64,000 nt of DNA from a virus (taxonomy: Duplodnaviria > Caudoviricetes): IMG/VR virus record IMGVR_UViG_3300011242_000002, positions 96,001-160,000 of that record; one strand, 5' to 3'. How positions within the stretch are numbered: the stretch's first letter is position 1; every line of letters starts with the position of its first letter. Position numbers and translations under genes: made by a program. This document shows, one piece after another, positions 36,711 through 61,999 of the stretch. The notes under the pieces are model-generated. The model made no database searches. It worked only from the letters and a program-made list of their open reading frames with translations, and was not told the origin of the DNA.

Positions 36711-38240
36711 ATGCTGAAGAAACAAGATGTGGCTGCAATTATGCCAATCGCCGGGATGTTGGCCGAACGCGGCGTGCGTTTAGAGACGGTCCCCGGTTCC
36801 CCGATCAGTAACCTGACCATGGCCAGTGCCTCCATCAACCCAAGCGATGCCGATCCTGAATCGGTGCTGATTGCGGTATCGAACCCGTACGACACCGGTC
36901 GTCGTGATACCGAGGGTAACCCAGTGGTCCTGCCCTCTGAACACGGCTTTGTGAAAAAGCGCACCGTGGACTGTATTGCCAAAGGCGTCCAGACCGTCGT
37001 GGCGAACGCCCGTGGGGTAGTGATTCCCGCGATTAATGCTGCCCGTGATGCGGTGCTGACCGGGGTGGATGAAGGTAGCAAGGCCAAGGTGATTATCCCT
37101 GAGGTCGACGTCTACAACTATGATCCGATCTACGCCAGCGTTATCGTTGACGGGATTGCTAACCAGTACCAGCAGGTGGACCTGGTCGGGATGCCTACCC
37201 TGCAGTTGCCGGATCTGAGCGAAGAGCAGCTGCATGCTCTGGTGGATTCCGGTTCCCAGGAAGTGCGTGACTTCATCGCCCGTGAAGACCAGGAGTGTCC
37301 AGGTCATCTGTCAGCGATCTGGCAGATCTGGTTCCAGGGCCGTCCGGTTTCTAACACTGACGACTTCGTGTTCTTAAGCCGTATGCTGGTTGGTGGTAAC
37401 GACAAGACCCGTCTGATTGCGGCCGGTCAGTTCGGTGACAGCACCGACACCCGTAAAGGCTACGACTCGATCCTGGTGGCGTTCCTGTTGGCCAATGCCC
37501 TGTACGACAACCCGGTAAGCGGCGTGAGCTGGAACCTGGACCTGGCGCAGTACAACATGGCGATGTCGGCGTTTAAAGCACACTTCGGTAAAGTGGTCGG
37601 TCGCGTGTACAACGCCCGTGTGGTGGCTGCCGAACAGAAGCAGCTGATCATCAACATGCCGGTAGTGGCTAACTGGCAACTCGGTGAGCGCACGGAAAAC
37701 ATCCTGCTTAACGGTGACGTGTATAAATGGTACCTCGACAACGGTGGTTCCATTGAAGCGGTAATCGGTAACGTCTTTAGCCAGCGTACGCCAAGCGGTC
37801 GCACCACGCTTGACCTGAAGCCGCAGTTCGAAGCCGCGTATAACAACGTGGTGAGTAGCTATGCGGGTCTTGGGGTAAGCAACAAGCATCGCCTGACCAT
37901 CACCCTGTTGAGCGAAGTCTTGATTAACCATATCAAGCAGATCGACATCGGCTACTGGGACAGCCTTCATCCGAACACCAGCAAGCTCTCCGTCATCCAA
38001 GACGTGCAGAACTACCTGGCGCAGGGTTTACCGCTGGGCACCACCGATGCCATTAACCGTGTCATCATCTTCGCCTTTGCTACGCTGATCTACGGTCCGC
38101 TGCGTACCGAAGACTTCATCTCGGCGATGAACAACTACCCGGACCAGACGCTGTCGCCAAAAGCGATCGCTGCACACGTAATCATGGACATGGTCATCAA
38201 GTCCCTGATGTGCGACGTCTATTACAACTTCAACTCGTAA
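36711..38240 (+). CDS. Putative virion head/internal protein
   Basis: 509 aa; in the vRNAP-to-protease block. Confidence 0.7.
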   Translation: MLKKQDVAAIMPIAGMLAERGVRLETVPGSPISNLTMASASINPSDADPESVLIAVSNPYDTGRRDTEGNPVVLPSEHGFVKKRTVDCIAKGVQTVVANARGVVIPAINAARDAVLTGVDEGSKAKVIIPEVDVYNYDPIYASVIVDGIANQYQQVDLVGMPTLQLPDLSEEQLHALVDSGSQEVRDFIAREDQECPGHLSAIWQIWFQGRPVSNTDDFVFLSRMLVGGNDKTRLIAAGQFGDSTDTRKGYDSILVAFLLANALYDNPVSGVSWNLDLAQYNMAMSAFKAHFGKVVGRVYNARVVAAEQKQLIINMPVVANWQLGERTENILLNGDVYKWYLDNGGSIEAVIGNVFSQRTPSGRTTLDLKPQFEAAYNNVVSSYAGLGVSNKHRLTITLLSEVLINHIKQIDIGYWDSLHPNTSKLSVIQDVQNYLAQGLPLGTTDAINRVIIFAFATLIYGPLRTEDFISAMNNYPDQTLSPKAIAAHVIMDMVIKSLMCDVYYNFNS

Positions 38241-39697: not shown

Positions 39698-40480
39698 ATG
39701 TCAAATATTACGTTTACGTGTCAGACGCTCAAGGGCACGAACAAAGCCGGGACGTTGAAGCCAAGTGGGGATGGGTACTGGACCGTCGTGCTGGGCGGGT
39801 TTAACATCCATAACGAAACCGGTAACTTCTACCCGTTTAACAACTACCTCAAAGAGGTGTTCCTCAAATCGTCGACGTTTATGCGTCGTATCGAACGCGG
39901 GCACCTGCGCGGGGAGCAGGACCATCCGAAGCTGCTGCCGGGGATGACCCAGCAACAGTTCTTCTCCCGTCTGCGTTACCTGGACATGAACTGCTGGTCC
40001 CACCACATCCGTGCGGTGGAGCTTGACTTCAGCAACTTCAAGTCGCAGCATGGCGAACAGATGGTAGCGGTGCTGGGGGAAATCAAACCGGTGGGTGGTC
40101 CAATCGGTGACAAGCTTCTGGCCTCTTTGGAAAACCCGAGCGAAGACACCTGCTTCTCCGTGCGTTCTCTCACCATGGACACCATGATGGGGATGGCGTG
40201 GAAGAAGGACATCTACGAGCTGGTAACCTGGGACTGGGTGCCGGAGCCGGGTGTACGTAACGCCACCAAGTACCACTCGCCGGGGCTGGAGGCGTTCGAA
40301 GAGTTCCGCTTTGATCCTGCGATCATTCGTAACGAAATCGTGACGGCAAAACACGCCGGCGGTCAGGGCTACGGGCTGGAGTCCAACAGCAACGACACCT
40401 CGCGTCTGGAAGTGATGCTGCAGGATTATGAAGCGGGCAGCAACTCCCCGATTCTGCGTCCAACAGCACTGCGCTGGTAA
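39698..40480 (+). CDS. Prohead (head maturation) protease (phiKZ gp175-like)
   Basis: LRGEQDHP, SHHI, FSVRS (catalytic Ser), TWDWVPEPG; C-terminal GLE sites. Confidence 0.9.
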   Translation: MSNITFTCQTLKGTNKAGTLKPSGDGYWTVVLGGFNIHNETGNFYPFNNYLKEVFLKSSTFMRRIERGHLRGEQDHPKLLPGMTQQQFFSRLRYLDMNCWSHHIRAVELDFSNFKSQHGEQMVAVLGEIKPVGGPIGDKLLASLENPSEDTCFSVRSLTMDTMMGMAWKKDIYELVTWDWVPEPGVRNATKYHSPGLEAFEEFRFDPAIIRNEIVTAKHAGGQGYGLESNSNDTSRLEVMLQDYEAGSNSPILRPTALRW

Positions 40481-53009: not shown

Positions 53010-55190
53010 ATGATACTGTATGGGAATGACTGGTGTAAGTACCGTGTTATGCCACACGTACACTATGAAACCAAAAACGACAGCTTCCTCAAGATTGCCA
53101 AGAAGCTGCACGACATGGGGGTCAAGAACTGTCTGTTCATGCTCTCCTTGTTTAACAAGTCACTGATCGACGTTGACCCCTACGACCCGAACTTGACCGA
53201 TGAACAGAAGCAGGCGATCGCCATTGAGTGCAGCATCAACTTCTGGTACTTCATCCGTGAAGTCATCCGTATTCGTGTCCCTGGTCAGGCGGAAGGTATT
53301 CGCTACATCGCCAACCGTGGCAACATGGCGTTGAGCTGGCTGTACCTGGCACACATCGACGTCTTCCTGATCCAGCCGCGTCAGACCGGGAAGTCAGTAT
53401 CGACGGACTGCATCATGCTGTGGCTGATGTACTTCGGCAGCCGGCAGAACAACATCTCCCTGATCACTAAGGGCGACCTGCGGACTGAGAACATCAAGCG
53501 TCTAAAAGCGATGCGTGACTTCCTGCCAGGCTATCTGATCGTGCGTGACCGTAAAGACCCGGATAACTCCGAGTGGCTGGGCTACGCCGCGTTGAAAAAC
53601 GTCTATAAGGCCGCGATTGCCCAAGGTAACGAAACCGCAGCCAACAACCTGGGGCGTGGTATTACCACGGCCACCATCCACATCGATGAAGGCCCGTTCC
53701 TGTCGTTTGTTGACATCACCATTCCGGCGGCGCTTAACGCCACGACAACCGCGCGCCGCTATGCTGAGATGAACCAGACGCCACACGGCAACATCTTTAC
53801 CACCACGGCCGGTCGTCGTGACTCCCGTGAAGGTAAGTACTTCTACGGTATTCTGCAGGACGCGGCAGTGTGGAACGAAATGTTCTACGACTGTGTCGAT
53901 TTCAAAGACCTGTCGGAAACCATCATGAACAACTCCGGCTCCGAGGCGCCGTCGGTGAACATCACCATGTCGCACCGCCAGCTGGGGTACACGGACGAAT
54001 GGTTGCGTAAAACCATCGCCCAGAACAAGAACGACAAGGAGTCGGCAGAACGTGACTTCCTCAACCGCTGGACTTCAGGTAACCTGACGTCTCCTCTGTC
54101 GATTGCGCTTAACGAAAAGATCAACGCCTCGCAGCGTGAAGTGGTGTACACCGAAATCACCAAGCAGAAGTACATCGTGCGCTGGTACATCTCGAAGGGG
54201 GATATTGACTACAACCGTACGCATACCCACTACACCATCGGGATGGATACCTCGGATGCCACCTCAACCGGGGACAGCAACACCATCGTCATTCGCGATA
54301 TTCGCGACATGGGGGTGGTGGCGACCATGAACTTCCGCAACACCAACACGATCAACATCCAGAACATGGTCGCTGATCTGCTGGAGCAGCACCCGAACTC
54401 CACGTTCATTCCTGAACGTAACCGGGCTCAGTCGTTGATTGACCATCTGCTGATTGAACTGCCGCGTCGTGGTATTGATCCGTTTAAGCGCATCTATAAC
54501 ACGCTGGTTGACGATCAGACGGTACGTCGCTCCGACTTCATGGAGTTGATCAACACGCCGCTCGGTGCGCGCACGCAGGAGTTCTACGACTCCAAGCGCA
54601 CCTGCTTTGGTTTCTGGACCGGCGCCCAGTCGCGTCCAATTCTTTACGGTCGTATTCTGCAGGAGTGTGCGAAGCACACCGGCTACGTCACCCGCGATAA
54701 GGAACTCATTGATCAGATCATGGGTCTGGTGGCAAAGAACGGCCGCGTGGACCACAAGTCCGGTGGACACGACGACCTGGTCATCGCCTGGCTGCTAGGC
54801 TACTGGTTCATTACCGATGCCCGCCATCACGACTGGTACGGTATTGACACCCGGAAGGTTATGTGTGTCACCGAACAGGCACAGGGTTACTCCATTGAGG
54901 AGCAGGCGTGGCTGGACTACCAGGCCCGCATGCGTGACGAACTCACCAGCGTGATGGAGCAGCTGAAGAACAGCACCAACCCAATGATCATCAGCCGGTT
55001 GGAGCAGCAGCTGCGTAACCTGAAAACCCAGATCGTCGATATGGGTAATGATGCTATGACGGTAGATCAGTTGTTACTGGAAGCGAAAGAGGCACGTCAG
55101 CTGAAAGCGCGCACCGGTCGTCAACTGACCCCGCCGCAAAACATCGGCGCCCGACCCAAGTCGCGGCGCTTTAACCACGTGTACTATTAA
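53010..55190 (+). CDS. terL: Terminase large subunit
   Basis: PRQTGKS Walker A, IHIDE Walker B, FTTT motif III, GMDTS and HDDLVIA nuclease motifs. Confidence 0.93.
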   Translation: MILYGNDWCKYRVMPHVHYETKNDSFLKIAKKLHDMGVKNCLFMLSLFNKSLIDVDPYDPNLTDEQKQAIAIECSINFWYFIREVIRIRVPGQAEGIRYIANRGNMALSWLYLAHIDVFLIQPRQTGKSVSTDCIMLWLMYFGSRQNNISLITKGDLRTENIKRLKAMRDFLPGYLIVRDRKDPDNSEWLGYAALKNVYKAAIAQGNETAANNLGRGITTATIHIDEGPFLSFVDITIPAALNATTTARRYAEMNQTPHGNIFTTTAGRRDSREGKYFYGILQDAAVWNEMFYDCVDFKDLSETIMNNSGSEAPSVNITMSHRQLGYTDEWLRKTIAQNKNDKESAERDFLNRWTSGNLTSPLSIALNEKINASQREVVYTEITKQKYIVRWYISKGDIDYNRTHTHYTIGMDTSDATSTGDSNTIVIRDIRDMGVVATMNFRNTNTINIQNMVADLLEQHPNSTFIPERNRAQSLIDHLLIELPRRGIDPFKRIYNTLVDDQTVRRSDFMELINTPLGARTQEFYDSKRTCFGFWTGAQSRPILYGRILQECAKHTGYVTRDKELIDQIMGLVAKNGRVDHKSGGHDDLVIAWLLGYWFITDARHHDWYGIDTRKVMCVTEQAQGYSIEEQAWLDYQARMRDELTSVMEQLKNSTNPMIISRLEQQLRNLKTQIVDMGNDAMTVDQLLLEAKEARQLKARTGRQLTPPQNIGARPKSRRFNHVYY

Positions 55191-55568: not shown

Positions 55569-55609
55569 ACATAAAGGAGAGGAGCTTGCGCCCCTCTCCT
55601 TTTATGCCG
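55569..55609. repeat. CATAA-hairpin-TTATGCCG element between convergent genes
   Basis: acataaaggagaggag-cttgc-gcccctctccttttatgccg. Confidence 0.75.
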
Positions 55610-55614
55610 ATTTA

Positions 55615-56580
55615 TTATTTAAACGATTTAATGATCCATTCTTCCAGACCACGCGCAATACCGATGAGCTGGGTGTGGATTCTGTAGCCGTAATGACCGA
55701 GATTGCCGTTCACGATCTCGGCGTAACCCCACTCCCATATAGCGTCGGCATCATCACCAAACTTATCAAAGTAATCCCACAGCCCGACGTTATGCCACAC
55801 GTCTTCGGTGAGTTCATCAACGTCGGTTGCTTTGGCAAGTAATGACTTGATCAGCGCGACCGCTTTACCGTATTCATCCTTGGTCAATGCCGGTAACTTA
55901 CCGCCTTTCTTATCTTCTTTATCCAACTTAATATTGGCGCAGGGTTCGGTCCAGACGTCACGGCCATATTTAGCTCTGAGTTGCTCAACGATACCTTCAC
56001 GTTCCTCACGATCGGGTTCGTCACCCCAGCGACGGATGTAGGGTTCGATCTCTTTCCACAGTTTAATGTGGTCAGCAGTCGCTTTCTTAAATTCGGTGAC
56101 TACCTCATTGAAGTATTTCTCCAGCGCTTTACTGACCGTAGCGAAGTCTTTGCCCTCGAAGAGTTTGGAGATCATGCCGTTGCTTACTTCTTTCTCAACG
56201 GATTCTTTGCCGTTAAGCCAGGCTGCGGTGTAGGTGCTGTTGACCTTTTGCTCGGCCACCTTGATGTCTTTCAACGCCGGGCTGTTCTTGGCCAGCATCA
56301 GTTTCTTAAAGCCGACGTAGCCCGCCGTGGCTAAAGCTGCCACACCGACGATGGCGAGACCGATGGCTTCGTTACCCACACCCGGCTGCACGTGTTTGCC
56401 GTAGCGAGCTTCCAGCCCTCGCATGATCAGCTGATGGGCGGGATTTTCTGCCAAGGCTTCCACCCCGACACCTTCGATCTGCTTAGAGTAGGCCGTTAGC
56501 AAATCACGGTCCTGTTTAAGCCGGCGACCTTCGTGTACAAAGTTGACGAAGGCTTGCGGCTCCTTATCAAAAATAGACAT
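55615..56580 (-). CDS. Internal head protein paralog with G-x-E propeptide and hydrophobic segment
   Basis: GVGVEAL, RGLEARY, GVGNEAIGLAIVGVAALATAG; C-terminus LEEWIIKSFK like the other paralogs. Confidence 0.75.
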   Translation of the reverse strand: MSIFDKEPQAFVNFVHEGRRLKQDRDLLTAYSKQIEGVGVEALAENPAHQLIMRGLEARYGKHVQPGVGNEAIGLAIVGVAALATAGYVGFKKLMLAKNSPALKDIKVAEQKVNSTYTAAWLNGKESVEKEVSNGMISKLFEGKDFATVSKALEKYFNEVVTEFKKATADHIKLWKEIEPYIRRWGDEPDREEREGIVEQLRAKYGRDVWTEPCANIKLDKEDKKGGKLPALTKDEYGKAVALIKSLLAKATDVDELTEDVWHNVGLWDYFDKFGDDADAIWEWGYAEIVNGNLGHYGYRIHTQLIGIARGLEEWIIKSFK

Positions 56581-56729: not shown

Positions 56730-57698
56730 TTACTTCAGCGCGGTGATGATCATCTTTTCCATTTGAACCAACACATTTTTCATGAAGTCGGCACATTTGG
56801 CATACAGCTCTTCACCACCTCCCAAGACCGCTTCCCAATGCAGGCAATGATAATAAAGTTTATCAACCTCATTAAGCTCGACAATCCCGAGATGGTCTAG
56901 ATCGGAATCACCAACGGCATCAAGATACGGCTCTTCAAAATCAATAAGCTCGTTATAGTACCAGTTAACGATACGCGCCATCTCATCCCCGATGGCAACG
57001 CACTGTTCCTTAGAGAGCTTAATATCAGCGGCGCCGTTGCCGGGTTTGATTTCCACACGAGTGTTTAAGCTATCCAATTTAGGTCTCAGGATAGCAAACT
57101 GCTCAGCCGCGTATTTCTTCAGCGCCTCGTCGTCGTCACCGAGTTTATTTAACTGATCCACCACTTTGTGGGTCTCGGTGATGTACGCTTTGATGTTTTT
57201 GGCGTAATCATTGATGGCGACGTCGTACAGCTTGAAAGCTGCAGCTGGGGTGGAGGACACCTCTTCCGCAGACTTAACGTCGCCGACAACTTTAGCCAGT
57301 TCAACGGTACTAACTGATTTGCCTGTCTCATCCTTGTCAGAATACCAGCTGCGGTTACCGTAGGTTTTCTTGATTGCGCTTTCCAGATCAACAGCCGCCT
57401 TTTTAAGCTCGGCCGGCAGTTTACCCTTGAAGCGTTTCTTTAATCCACTGATCCCGGTCTTCAGTTTATCAACAAGCTCGCGTAAGCCTTCGATACCTGA
57501 ACCCACCTTGAAATGATCCGGATAACGAGTGGAAAGACCGCTTTCGATTAACGCACCTGATACGGTATTTAGTGACTCCACCCCACAGCCGTTGGCGTGA
57601 ACTAAAAACCGTTCAATAAGATCAACGTCCGCCTGGAGTGATTCTACTCCGCCAGAGGCTGAGATGATGATTCCCAGTTTTTCTAACTCATGGTTCAT
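56730..57698 (-). CDS. Internal head protein paralog
   Basis: HANGCGVESL...RYP.HF..GSGIEGL; KTYGN.SW; start probably ATG 57698. Confidence 0.8.
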   Translation of the reverse strand: MNHELEKLGIIISASGGVESLQADVDLIERFLVHANGCGVESLNTVSGALIESGLSTRYPDHFKVGSGIEGLRELVDKLKTGISGLKKRFKGKLPAELKKAAVDLESAIKKTYGNRSWYSDKDETGKSVSTVELAKVVGDVKSAEEVSSTPAAAFKLYDVAINDYAKNIKAYITETHKVVDQLNKLGDDDEALKKYAAEQFAILRPKLDSLNTRVEIKPGNGAADIKLSKEQCVAIGDEMARIVNWYYNELIDFEEPYLDAVGDSDLDHLGIVELNEVDKLYYHCLHWEAVLGGGEELYAKCADFMKNVLVQMEKMIITALK

Positions 57699-57710
57699 TT
57701 CAACCACCTT

Positions 57711-58685
57711 TTACTTCAATGCGGTGATGATCATCTTTTCCATGGCGATCACGGTTGGGCGAATCAGCTTACCAGCCTCGGCCAGCAGCTGCTCGTTCGT
57801 CCCGAGCACGGCTTCCCAGCACAGGTAGTTCCAGAACAGGGTCGCGAACGCCTTGTTCTCTTCTGCGCCTTCGATGCTGTTCAGCGTGGACTGACCCATT
57901 GCTGCGTCAAGGGCTGGATCGGCTTTCAGCATCTGGTTTTTGATCCAGTTCGGAATACGGGCCATCTCTTTACCGATCGCCACACACTGGTCTTTAGTCA
58001 GTTTAGCATCGGCGACACCCTGACCGGCACTAATGTCAACCGGCACGTACTTCAGCTTCTCGTGCAGCGGCTTAAAGATTTCAATCTGTTCGTTAGCAAA
58101 CTTGGTCAGCGCTTCGCTATCACCGGCCAGCGCTTTCGCCTTCTTCACGACCTCGTGCGTTTTCGGGATGTACGCGTTGACTTCTTTCAGGTTGCTGTTC
58201 AGCGCGGCATCGTATTTCTTGAACGCGGCGGATACGGCAGAAACCACGTCGCTACCGGACTTGATGTCACCCACGATCTTGGCCAGCTCAGCGGTGCTAA
58301 CCGGCTTATCGGTTTCGTCCTTGTCGGCGAACCAGCCTGGGTTGCCGTAGGTTTTCTTGATGGCGTTTTCGAGGTCGCCCGTTGCTTTAACGAGCTCCGC
58401 AGGCAGCTTGCCCTTAAAGCGCTTCTTAAGACCGTCGAGGCCTTTCTTCAGCACCCCTACCAGCTCCTGCAAACCTTCCAGGCCGCTGCCGGCTTTGAAG
58501 TGGGTTGGATAGCGGGCTTCCAGACCAAGCTCAATCAGCTGACCGGACGGAGTATCTAAAGACTCCAGACCACAACCGTTGGCATGGGTCAGGAACTGCT
58601 CGATGAGTGAAATGTCAGTCTGGAGCGATTCCATGCTGGCGCTAACGGTGCTGACAAGTTCAAACTGGGATAATTCGTGTTGCAT
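57711..58685 (-). CDS. Internal head protein paralog
   Basis: HANGCGLESL...ARYP.HF..GSGLEGL; shares MEKMIITALK C-terminus with neighbour. Confidence 0.8.
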   Translation of the reverse strand: MQHELSQFELVSTVSASMESLQTDISLIEQFLTHANGCGLESLDTPSGQLIELGLEARYPTHFKAGSGLEGLQELVGVLKKGLDGLKKRFKGKLPAELVKATGDLENAIKKTYGNPGWFADKDETDKPVSTAELAKIVGDIKSGSDVVSAVSAAFKKYDAALNSNLKEVNAYIPKTHEVVKKAKALAGDSEALTKFANEQIEIFKPLHEKLKYVPVDISAGQGVADAKLTKDQCVAIGKEMARIPNWIKNQMLKADPALDAAMGQSTLNSIEGAEENKAFATLFWNYLCWEAVLGTNEQLLAEAGKLIRPTVIAMEKMIITALK

Positions 58686-58696
58686 GATGACCTCTA

Positions 58697-59716
58697 TTAA
58701 TAAGCTTTGGTGGTAACCGTGGTGCTGCTACGTACGTAGTCGTCACCACTAAAAGTTGTTTCCAGGTAATCCACACCACCTGGAATAACGATGCGCGCAC
58801 CCACGTAACCATTGGCACGGGCGACAGTGCGAACGAACTCACGCATGGACTGCAAGTTTTCGGCGGTGCGGTATTCGGGTAGCAGATAGAGTTCTTCGAC
58901 CACCATAACCTTCATGCGGCCGTCAATGCTGTCCTGGAACGACATCACACCTACAATCCCGCGCATGCACTGACCCAGCATAATGTTGCGGTCCATCACG
59001 GCACCCCGGGCCTTAATCACCCCGGGGATGTTCAGCGTTTTCCTGTCTGCTTCCAAACGCTCCATGTCCGCATACTGCAGCAGGGTGATAGCCGCACGGG
59101 TTAGCTGACGGGATTTGGCAAGTCCTTTAGGCGAGTGGGCTGACCACTGCAGCGTTGACGCCACGGTGTTAGCAAACTCAAACACCGCACCCCAGTCGAC
59201 CACGCCGAGCTTATCGTTCTCGGCATTGGTTTTCGCGATGATCTCCGCCATCCCTTCTAACCCACCGGCCAGATGCTCCAGCGATGCCAGGCTATTATCT
59301 TTAAGACGGTCCGGGTAGAGCTCGTTCAGATCGGCAACCAGCTCCAGGTGACCCGGGTGATCATTCAGGGCTTCATTCCCTTCACTCATCAGCTGCACGT
59401 GAGTGCGGATAGCTTGGGCACGTTCACGCGACTCAACCTCAAGGTCAAGCATCTGCGCGTGCTGCAGCTCGGCACCGGTCATCGGCGCTGCAATATCTTT
59501 ATCCATCGCCTTCAGTAAACTGCCCAGGCCTTCGATGCCAGCGTCAAGGGTAAAGAGGTCGGGGTACTTCTCAGCCATCTCGGCAGCGATCTCAACGGCA
59601 GGGGTGGTGCTTAATGTTTCCAAGCCACACCCCTGGGCATCGGTCATGAACTGACGCAGCTTTTCAGCATCGTCAATCATCTGCTGGCTTTTAACGTAGG
59701 GTGACATTCCGGTCAT
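58697..59716 (-). CDS. Double-propeptide protein with C-terminal GNAT-like domain
   Basis: Two modules (QGCGLETL..KYP..AGIEGL; EGNEAL..LYP..GGLEGM) followed by IVGVM...VEELYLLPEYR...ARANG. Confidence 0.65.
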   Translation of the reverse strand: MTGMSPYVKSQQMIDDAEKLRQFMTDAQGCGLETLSTTPAVEIAAEMAEKYPDLFTLDAGIEGLGSLLKAMDKDIAAPMTGAELQHAQMLDLEVESRERAQAIRTHVQLMSEGNEALNDHPGHLELVADLNELYPDRLKDNSLASLEHLAGGLEGMAEIIAKTNAENDKLGVVDWGAVFEFANTVASTLQWSAHSPKGLAKSRQLTRAAITLLQYADMERLEADRKTLNIPGVIKARGAVMDRNIMLGQCMRGIVGVMSFQDSIDGRMKVMVVEELYLLPEYRTAENLQSMREFVRTVARANGYVGARIVIPGGVDYLETTFSGDDYVRSSTTVTTKAY

Positions 59717-59725
59717 GGCGCGACC

Positions 59726-60697
59726 TCATTTAACGGAGTTAACGATAAGCTTCTCAAGCTCTTTGACCGCCTGCACGCAGTAGTCGGCTGCGCGTTTAGC
59801 GCTGCGATCAACCGGCATGTAGTAGTCTTCCCAGAACGTGCGAATCCAAACCTCTCTTTGCAGGTCTTTGTTCTCGATATCGTCGTAGGCACCTGCATCA
59901 GAGATGCCGCAGTCCTCGATCACGTCTGACGCATTATTGGCCAGGTGTACGCAACGGGCCATCACTTCTTTAAGCAACTTGCCGATAGCCTGTGCCTGCT
60001 CCACGGTCAACCCGTCGATGGTTTCGCCTTTGCCGCCGCCAAGCTTAGGCAGCTCTTCATCGAAGGCCTGACTGGCGCGTTTTGGTAGCGCGGTAACAAT
60101 GTCGCTGATCAGTTTATCAACGCCATCCTCTTTTACCTTTAATGCACGCTTATAGAACGGTTCGGCTTTACCCCAATAAGCGTTAACGTTGCTGATGATC
60201 TTTTTCATGTGATCATCCACAGTTTTCAACAACGCTTTTACCTGACGATCCACATCGGCGTAGCTGTTGATGTCACCGACCAGATTGGCCAGTGAGGCCA
60301 CGGAAACCGGTTTGCCAATAGCGGACTTGTCTTTATACCAGTTGCTGTTGGCATAGGTGTTGTTAATTTCGGTGGCGGTTTCATGGGCAATTTTGTCAAT
60401 GAACGGTTTGGCTTTCCCGCGCGCCATTTTCTTCAGGCCCTGGATCCCCTGCTTGAGCTTGTCAGCCAATGCGCCCAACCCTTCCAGACCGTCACCGACG
60501 TTGAAATAGCCAGGATAGCGGGCAGCCAGGCCGGTCTCGATCAGCTTGCCGGTGGCGGTGTCAAGCGACTCCAACCCGCAGCCGTTGGCATGGGCGATAA
60601 ACTGGGTCAACAGCTCAACGTCTTTTTCAAGGCCTTCAAGGGCGTGACCGAGGAACATGTTGTCAACAGCGGTGGTGTTAATTAAAGACATAATCAA
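59726..60697 (-). CDS. Internal head protein paralog
   Basis: HANGCGLESL...ARYP.YF..GDGLEGL; NTYAN.NW. Confidence 0.8.
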   Translation of the reverse strand: MIMSLINTTAVDNMFLGHALEGLEKDVELLTQFIAHANGCGLESLDTATGKLIETGLAARYPGYFNVGDGLEGLGALADKLKQGIQGLKKMARGKAKPFIDKIAHETATEINNTYANSNWYKDKSAIGKPVSVASLANLVGDINSYADVDRQVKALLKTVDDHMKKIISNVNAYWGKAEPFYKRALKVKEDGVDKLISDIVTALPKRASQAFDEELPKLGGGKGETIDGLTVEQAQAIGKLLKEVMARCVHLANNASDVIEDCGISDAGAYDDIENKDLQREVWIRTFWEDYYMPVDRSAKRAADYCVQAVKELEKLIVNSVK

Positions 60698-60700
60698 TCC

Positions 60701-61999
60701 TTAGGATGAGTAGTGTTTCATGGATAAAGCACGCAGGATAATGTACAGGAACAATCCAACGCGAACGGTCGCCACGGTGGCGGGGGTGCGAATGCCGGTG
60801 GCAATGCTGACCATATCATCGCCGATCTCACGCATGCGCAGCAGGCTTTCGTTGCTGGTGCGGCTTGAACGATAGGCGCCCTTCATTTTCGACACCACGT
60901 CCGGGACGTCGTTGAGTTTCAGGTTCTTTGACGACACGTATTCGAACAGGTGCTGAATGGTTTCCTTGAGCAGGCTGTCGATCATCCCCGACTTATCGTA
61001 GCGGTAGTTCGATGAGATATAACGCAGGGTGGCTTCCAAGGGTGCCGGCGGGATAGTGGGGTTGGATTTGGTGATAATCACCGCCAGTTCCGGACGATAC
61101 CAGTCTGACTCCACCCCGACGATGTTCTGTACGTAGCGCAGGTACACCGACACGATACGCTCCACGTCGCGGATGTGCTTCACGCCGTCAAGCTCTACCG
61201 AGGACGAGCCTTCGGTAATCATCGCCTCTTTCAGCTTCACCTGGTGAAAAACGTTGTTGATCGAGTTGATGACATCACGCAGGCGGTCCTGGACGTCACC
61301 CACCATATACACCACCGCTTTATCATCGGTCATGCGCACGTAGGTCTCGTAGTGGATCCCGCTGCCCTGTGTAATTATTGACTTTGCTCTGGCATCTATG
61401 AGGGCCTGCCAGCTACCGTATTGCTTCAGGTCAAATTTCTTTGACAGCTGACGGTAGGTTTCCATCGCCACCGACTTGTTGGCCGGGTACGGATAGTCGT
61501 GGCTGAGGATCGAAGACAGGTTCTTGTAGTGGAAGATCCTGACCACGTCCATCTTGCCCTGCTCAATCTCCGCGCTGTTAAGGTGTTTGGAGTGGTGCAG
61601 CAGGTGCAGCAGCACCGGCATGGACAGGTTAAACAAATCACCGGTAACGTGGAATTTCGGGTTCACGAAGGCGGTGTTGTGCACATCGTTGGTCAGATCA
61701 ACCTCGTCGGTGTCCAGGATGGTATCAAACCACTCGTTACGGTCAGCAATGGTGAACTTGATCGGATAAACGCCAATCAGGTTGCCGCCAAAGAAGCTGA
61801 TGTGATCCTGGTTCTTGTTGCGAAAGCGACTGGCGTACATCCCCAGCGCACGCACCAGGTTACGGTCGGCCACCAGGTGTGGGCAGTTCTTTAAGAACGC
61901 CTCTTTGATGGTCATGCCGTTACCGGGTTTAAAAGGTAGGGCTTCGAGTCCGGCTGACAGGTACTGTGCCTCGTCAGTGAACATAGTGTGATCAAACAT
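60701..61999 (-). CDS. Conserved virion structural protein (phiKZ gp32-like) with N-terminal AGLE site
   Basis: KNQDHISFFGGNLIGV, LSKKFDLKQYGSW motifs typical of phiKZ-like phages. Confidence 0.75.
   Translation of the reverse strand: MFDHTMFTDEAQYLSAGLEALPFKPGNGMTIKEAFLKNCPHLVADRNLVRALGMYASRFRNKNQDHISFFGGNLIGVYPIKFTIADRNEWFDTILDTDEVDLTNDVHNTAFVNPKFHVTGDLFNLSMPVLLHLLHHSKHLNSAEIEQGKMDVVRIFHYKNLSSILSHDYPYPANKSVAMETYRQLSKKFDLKQYGSWQALIDARAKSIITQGSGIHYETYVRMTDDKAVVYMVGDVQDRLRDVINSINNVFHQVKLKEAMITEGSSSVELDGVKHIRDVERIVSVYLRYVQNIVGVESDWYRPELAVIITKSNPTIPPAPLEATLRYISSNYRYDKSGMIDSLLKETIQHLFEYVSSKNLKLNDVPDVVSKMKGAYRSSRTSNESLLRMREIGDDMVSIATGIRTPATVATVRVGLFLYIILRALSMKHYSS

Follow-up and report, generated by a model that had tools for sequence, protein, structure and literature searches.

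How does a domain that resembles an acetyltransferase come to stand in a row of apparent phage head genes, and what might it do there? The question is raised by a single gene (58697-59716, minus strand) in a 64,000-nucleotide window, by which we mean the whole stretch of DNA analysed here, positions 96,001 to 160,000 of the IMG/VR virus record IMGVR_UViG_3300011242_000002; coordinates are those of the window unless another record is named. An earlier reading of the letters (hereafter the original prediction) had described this open reading frame (ORF) as an array member in which a duplicated propeptide is fused to a GNAT-like domain, possibly an acetyltransferase delivered by the virion. The view that we moderately favour is that the product of the gene is a precursor, which a phage protease would process into an internal cargo protein of the head, and that its body is GNAT-like and probably non-canonical or inactive.

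The gene at 58697-59716 is real and conserved, and it is the second member of a five-member tandem array located by the gene for the large terminase subunit. It encodes a precursor of 339 residues (P0001) whose ATG start lies at 59716, preceded by a GAGG Shine-Dalgarno sequence (59724-59727) overlapping with the upstream paralog's stop codon, and every sequence string quoted in the original prediction is present in its translation. The only ortholog, a protein of 338 residues with 46% identity, occupies the syntenic position in a 25-kb contig from another phage (L001). Selection was judged on a 98%-identical strain (IMG/VR contig L007), orthologs at 46% identity having saturated synonymous sites. 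Across the whole ORF this strain and the window differ by 17 synonymous and four non-synonymous codon differences, with all four amino-acid changes confined to residues 77-118; within the body (residues 155-339) there are 10 synonymous and no non-synonymous differences, which argues for purifying selection on the body.

Kinship with the neighbouring genes lies in the N-terminal leader. The protein matches phrog_6709 (E-value 9.4e-10) and phrog_10834 (E 3.4e-6) only at residues 11-77, whereas these families cover most or all of each of the four neighbouring paralogs, and a hidden Markov model (HMM) of the paralogs scores the leader at 42.2 bits over residues 8-74. This first propeptide copy (residues 1-80; 59477-59716, minus strand) is 70% identical to that of the ortholog and carries the cut-type sites GLE33 and GIE62, which fall at the two G-x-E positions that are invariant across 13 family members. 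When array members from three phages are aligned, the invariant motifs (GCGLE/SL and GSGLE/GL) stand 29 residues apart. The propeptide module is confined to the five array genes in the genome of the window's phage. Membership of the array, as originally proposed, is thus borne out by the PHROG matches at residues 11-77 together with the shared invariant G-x-E positions.

Does the protein carry a second leader, as had also been claimed? BLASTP of residues 1-85 against residues 86-180 finds no internal repeat, and the family HMM is needed to show one. We built a leader HMM from 11 paralogs, leaving out the flagged protein and its ortholog. Run on the full proteins, it scores the ortholog at 14.9 bits (residues 98-155) and the flagged protein at 3.1 bits (residues 114-164); when segment 80-170 is excised and scored by itself, the ortholog attains 18.9 bits and the flagged protein 6.6, and none of 1000 shuffles reaches either segment score (the shuffle maxima being 6.5 bits for the ortholog and 5.5 bits for the flagged protein). 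The second copy in the ortholog keeps the 29-residue spacing seen in every paralog (GVE115 and GLE144). The corresponding copy in the flagged protein (residues ~98-154; 59255-59425, minus strand) retains GNE115, while its second site has decayed to SLA144, with SLE147 and GLE154 still present. A second copy was sought in the other 11 family members and found in none, so that the duplication is restricted to this orthologous pair. By the leader HMM and its shuffle control, then, the claim of two tandem copies is upheld, and the duplication is a real one as far as sequence can tell, though decayed in the window's copy.

The same pro-region is where cut-type motifs collect. Residues 1-154 of the flagged protein contain nine [G/A/S]-x-E motifs against 3.9 expected (P = 0.003), and those of the ortholog 11 against 4.5 expected (P = 0.0006). 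In neither ortholog do the last 185 residues contain a single one, where about 2.6 would be expected (P about 0.05 in each case). The two parts also differ in charge, the pro-region having an isoelectric point (pI) of 4.45 and the mature part one of 8.0. We predict that the last maturation cut falls after E154, which would release a mature protein of 20.4 kDa (residues 155-339; 58700-59254, minus strand).

A protease that might make such cuts is encoded in the same window. The product of the gene at 39698-40480 (plus strand) is homologous to gp175, the head maturation protease of phiKZ, and is presumably the enzyme that cuts at G-x-E; a search of the phage genome with phiKZ gp175 finds it at E 2.2e-30, with 38% identity over residues 21-214 (39716-40303 of the window, 135716-136303 of the genome, G000). 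The Pfam profile Peptidase_S77, to which T4 gp21 belongs, found no protease in the genome and missed the gene at 39698-40480 as well. There are precedents for this kind of processing: the SPN3US protease gp245 cuts after Glu at A-x-E, and the head proteases of phiKZ and 201phi2-1 likewise cut after Glu (PMC10052503, PMC5694885). Proteases of the SPN3US and phiKZ type strip N-terminal propeptides of 111-254 residues, with several motifs, from abundant ejection proteins; the ejection proteins gp53 and gp54 of SPN3US, for example, lose propeptides of 125-137 residues that have several motifs inside (PMC10052503, PMC5694885). By analogy with these systems, loading into the prohead and trimming by the gp175-type protease is the most likely fate of the protein.

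Alternatively, the protein may not be packaged at all, its N-terminal module serving for oligomerisation, for assembly chaperoning or as a degraded scaffold, and its body acting in the infected cell or the phage nucleus. Such a role would suit a family that has no detectable kinship to the phiKZ inner-body proteins, and whose homologs in the related phage RAY, gp185 and gp186, have been seen by mass spectrometry in crude lysates only (PMC6690015). However, what is invariant in the module is precisely the pair of G-x-E motifs, such motifs are concentrated in the pro-region and missing from the body, and the array sits in a late structural block, beside terminase and virion genes, in a genome that encodes the matching protease. 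We therefore regard a role outside the virion as quite unlikely.

If the leader places the protein in the array family, what is the body? The usual family body (profile positions about 90-321) is not present: the PHROG match ends at residue 77, and a BLASTP comparison between the body and those of all the paralogs returns no match, in keeping with the replacement that had been proposed. A word-indexed search of 5.8 billion proteins with the body returned only the protein itself, the strain variant and the one ortholog, and an exhaustive phmmer search of 1.84 billion representatives returned the same three besides P0004 (E 6e-4); the latter was rejected as a five-fold repeat protein whose weak match at 31% identity had been counted five times. 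A scan of IMG/VR recovered the near-identical strain only, a scan of metagenome contigs recovered no body homolog, and tblastn against 50,697 phage records matched the propeptide but not the body. Pfam searches with the body of either ortholog gave no match at E up to 10, and PF00583 gave none across the whole phage genome at the same limit, while the best results of profile and PDB sequence searches with the body were Ty1 Gag (E 0.6) and two PHROG matches (E about 0.1). Comparison with known phage GNATs by hhalign was likewise not significant, with P = 0.23 against the GNAT of RAY alone, P = 0.08 against its nine-member family, and P = 0.08 to 0.43 over all phage-GNAT runs, which included SPN3US gp88 and gp95. 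Both of these non-significant RAY runs give the same local alignment, of KVMVVEELYLLPEYRTA on LVCHIDEVFIDEPYRNK, which corresponds to strand beta4 and the start of motif A.

The case for a GNAT fold comes instead from predicted structure, in three separately made models: an ESM Atlas model of the flagged protein and AlphaFold2 models of the flagged protein and of the ortholog. The Atlas model has a predicted local distance difference test score (pLDDT) of 0.65; the AlphaFold2 models, made from a two-sequence input, have pLDDT values of 43.9 for residues 150-339 of the flagged protein and 45.8 for the ortholog (core 53-70). Both AlphaFold2 models show a helix, a second helix, three or four strands, a helix and a strand. 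In comparisons of the Atlas model, nine of 10 rows are GNAT clusters, with template-modelling (TM) scores of 0.53-0.61 by query and 0.62-0.68 by most GNAT targets, in alignments of 127-139 residues over about residues 184-339, which we take as the extent of the GNAT-like domain (58700-59167, minus strand). When the AlphaFold2 model is compared with the ESM Atlas, all 10 rows belong to GNAT families, with TM scores by query of 0.37-0.40, and Foldseek searches of the PDB with both AlphaFold2 models return GNATs in nearly every top row (E 3e-3 to 3e-2). A first VIA-align run against all PDB representatives was swamped by helical-bundle matches to the low-confidence N-terminal helices; a second look gave mostly GNATs, with Z 5-6.5 over about 80 residues at a root mean square deviation of 3.2-4 Å. 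Protein language-model neighbours of the flagged protein include viral GNAT clusters at 0.93-0.94; the neighbours of the ortholog are far less telling, only one of the 30 lying in a cluster with GNAT members.

Could these matches reflect no more than a common beta-beta-beta-alpha-beta motif in poorly folded models, the body being an orphan alpha/beta domain? The low pLDDT values, the Foldseek E-values of 3e-3 or worse, the low TM scores of the AlphaFold2 model and the single GNAT-containing neighbour of the ortholog would all fit such a domain, as would the non-GNAT matches (the chimallin N-terminal domain and cation-efflux C-terminal domains) that share the same Z. Against this, the three separately made models return GNATs in nearly every top row, and the Atlas model aligns with GNATs across the whole domain (about 130 residues) at the TM scores given above; moreover, the order of secondary structure and a beta4 segment of the form 'hydrophobic-x-P-x-Y-R' fit the GNAT core. 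We consider an orphan domain to be improbable, and the models, for all their low confidence, make it probable that the mature body has the GNAT fold, with its order beta1-alpha1-alpha2-beta2-beta3-beta4-alpha3-beta5-alpha4-beta6. The predicted GNAT-like body has thus held in part: the structural and language-model matches are almost exclusively GNATs, and the AlphaFold2 and Foldseek check points the same way in its top rows, but no sequence profile agrees and the check itself is tempered by pLDDT values of 44-46 and by the hhalign P-values of 0.08-0.43.

Whether a GNAT-like body would be an active one turns on motif A. In solved GNATs, backbone amides of the motif A loop (Q/R-x-x-G-x-G/A) hold the pyrophosphate of coenzyme A (CoA). 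At this position (58853-58870, minus strand) the flagged protein reads R283-T-A-E-N-L288 and the ortholog R-T-E-E-N-L, with both glycine positions substituted in both orthologs, so that the acetyl-CoA loop is indeed degenerate, as had been noted originally. A standard acetyl-CoA site is disfavoured because both glycines have been lost and a Glu gained, whereas the conservation of R-T-x-E-N-L between the orthologs suggests that the site still matters. Judging from these residues, a standard acetyltransferase is less to be expected than a pseudo-enzyme or an enzyme of non-canonical type. The proposal of 'an enzyme or pseudo-enzyme' accordingly survives in its second half, the loop favouring a pseudo-enzyme over an active acetyltransferase.

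The opposite possibility is an active acyltransferase, delivered by the virion, that binds acyl-CoA or another donor despite its loop and modifies, in the opening minutes of infection, a host or defence target; the originally proposed modification of host or defence proteins is entirely speculative. The GNAT fold predicted for the body, the strong purifying selection upon it and the conservation of R-T-x-E-N-L itself at only 46% overall identity would all suit an enzyme, and T4 Alt provides a precedent for an enzyme packaged via a cleaved leader (PMC5694885). Set against these are the replacement of both loop glycines, one of them by Glu, the failure of GNAT profiles to match at any threshold, and models too poor to assign a catalytic residue, and we think an active acyltransferase unlikely. 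It is less probable still, in our estimation, that the domain functions as an enzyme through a remodelled cofactor site and, once injected with the DNA, acylates or sequesters some host or defence factor ahead of the formation of the phage nucleus, with the duplicated propeptide setting its copy number in the capsid; were that so, it would be the first chimallivirus enzyme cargo with a defined loading tag, the virion RNA polymerase aside.

Returning to the processed internal head cargo that we prefer, the steps may be envisaged as follows. The acidic 154-residue pro-region, with its two leader copies, would carry the protein into the prohead, where the gp175-type head protease would cut after Glu at the G-x-E sites and reduce the pro-region to small pieces. 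The basic 20-kDa remainder, residues 155-339, which offers no [G/A/S]-x-E motif, would be left in the capsid beside the DNA, and the mature protein would probably enter the cell together with that DNA. It most likely has a GNAT-type fold, acquired in place of the usual body of the family. With both glycines gone from the loop for the acetyl-CoA pyrophosphate, an ordinary acetyltransferase is a less likely identity for the mature domain than a pseudo-enzyme with a binding or structural role, or an enzyme whose cofactor site is non-canonical.

Several observations weigh against this scheme. The depletion of motifs in the body is marginal (P about 0.05), and the evidence for RAY gp185 and gp186 comes from crude lysate and not from purified virions. 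HMMs built from full-length paralogs, and from the propeptide, reach 5.2 bits at best with phiKZ gp89-97 and reveal no homology; the head location of the array family therefore rests on analogy. With regard to the fold, the body is matched by no GNAT sequence profile, the AlphaFold2 models are of low confidence (pLDDT 44 and 46) with Foldseek E-values that are all above 1e-3, and the chimallin N-terminal domain and the cation-efflux C-terminal domains equal the GNATs in Z (5-6.5).

The phage itself is a giant, phiKZ-like relative of RAY. The window comprises bases 96001-160000 of a 273,301-bp record that bears direct terminal repeats, and its nearest catalogued relatives are Salmonella phage SA002, Erwinia phages pEa_SNUABM_37 and pEa_SNUABM_48, and the Agricanvirus group (RAY, Ea35-70), with nucleotide identities of 77-79% confined to short stretches. 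RAY is phiKZ-like and nucleus-forming and has a T=27 capsid (PMC10299810).

The array occupies the minus strand of the window's late structural block. It is headed by a conserved protein of 432 residues (60701-61999; phrog_2921, E 3e-162), as it is in every case seen (the window, L001, SA002 and RAY). There follow paralog 1 (59726-60697, 323 residues), which matches phrog_6709 over its full length (E 6e-50), the flagged gene, paralog 3 (57711-58685, 324 residues; phrog_6709, E 1e-30), paralog 4 (56730-57707, 325 residues) and paralog 5 (55615-56580, 321 residues). A strong terminator-like hairpin (55573-55602) separates the last array gene from the adjoining genes on the opposite strand, which encode a 98-residue protein and the large terminase subunit (53010-55190, plus strand), the latter assigned because the terminase genes annotated in SA002 and RAY are syntenic with it.

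The number of genes in the array varies even among close relatives. The 98%-identical strain L007 aligns only to 64000-57711 and 56762-51720 of the window; it is without about 950 bp, equivalent to one array member, and has four paralogs where the window has five, paralog 4 being the one that is missing. Array copy number thus differs between near-identical strains, and to judge by the sequences recombination between adjacent paralogs is probably the cause. In other phages the array has four members in SA002 (L002, 2666-6909) and four in L001 (6358-10451), and in RAY it has one full member and a short form of 146 residues (L008, 5007-6475). In L001 the GNAT-like member is the first array gene and in the window the second; SA002 and RAY have none. 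In paralog 5 and its orthologs (L001, 8513-9481; L002, 4953-5921) the second G-x-E site runs straight into a hydrophobic stretch of transmembrane-like character, as in GNE followed by AIGLAIVGVAALATAGYVGFKK, in the place where the sister paralogs have a basic amphipathic helix instead.

Two other acetyltransferase genes in phages of this kind may be recorded here. RAY and its close relatives encode a stand-alone, canonical GNAT of 158 residues with an intact R-N-K-G-I-G loop (L009, 1408-1884, corresponding to RAY 37283-37759). In SPN3US (L014, 19363-20960) an annotated acetyltransferase gene of 154 residues begins at the stop codon of a gene annotated as 'internal head protein'; the SPN3US papers examined on this point do not mention its being packaged.

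What might such a gene mean for the biology of these phages? Giant phiKZ-like phages hold tens of megadaltons of protein within the capsid. The array displays leader modularity as it occurs in nature: a propeptide of 60-75 residues is found in front of bodies that are unrelated to one another, may occur as a tandem duplicate and, in the gene studied here, is joined to a predicted enzyme-type fold that is foreign to the family. Should packaging be confirmed, the propeptide would become a candidate tag for loading chosen proteins into chimallivirus capsids, and the GNAT-like cargo a tractable candidate for an early effector or a component of the inner body.

Among known systems, the small phage GNATs, such as that of RAY, resemble the mature domain in predicted fold, in size (about 155 residues), in the order of secondary structure and in the alignment at beta4; unlike the RAY protein, the domain described here shows no significant sequence match, lacks the motif A glycines and follows head-protein propeptides in a single polypeptide. 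The same phage family makes its nuclear shell from chimallin, a protein that has a GNAT fold without active-site residues (PMC9365700) and whose C-terminal domain is a precedent for a pseudo-GNAT in these phages. That domain shows no sequence relationship to the GNAT-like body, which it far exceeds in size (about 350 residues), and where our models match chimallin structurally they do so in the N-terminal domain, which is not a GNAT.

With respect to packaging, T4 Alt and IPI-III offer a parallel in which a leader loads prohead cargo, including an enzyme (Alt), and is cut after Glu, the cargo then being injected with the DNA (PMC5694885). This likeness is one of mechanism only, by way of an N-terminal leader, and the proteins are not homologous. 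The T4 leaders, which end in the gp21 site, are 10-20 residues long as against the 154-residue pro-region with two 60-75-residue repeats found here, and the protease family here is only distantly related to T4 gp21, the Peptidase_S77 search having been empty. Another likeness is to SPN3US gp53 and gp54, of paralog family A, and the other substrates of gp245 and gp175, with which the array shares paralogous head genes, long propeptides, several x-E motifs and an encoded protease of the gp175 type; in SPN3US the protease chops the propeptide (111-254 residues) into small fragments. The present protein departs from those substrates in that its conserved motif is G-x-E, not A-x-E, and in its duplicated 60-75-residue module and GNAT-like mature part. 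The logic is already familiar from T4 Alt and the internal proteins, from the E proteins of SPN3US and from the propeptides of SPN3US and phiKZ, and the case is in that sense not unique; the gene itself is an array member that bears the head-protein propeptide, with its leader doubled and its body swapped for a GNAT-like domain.

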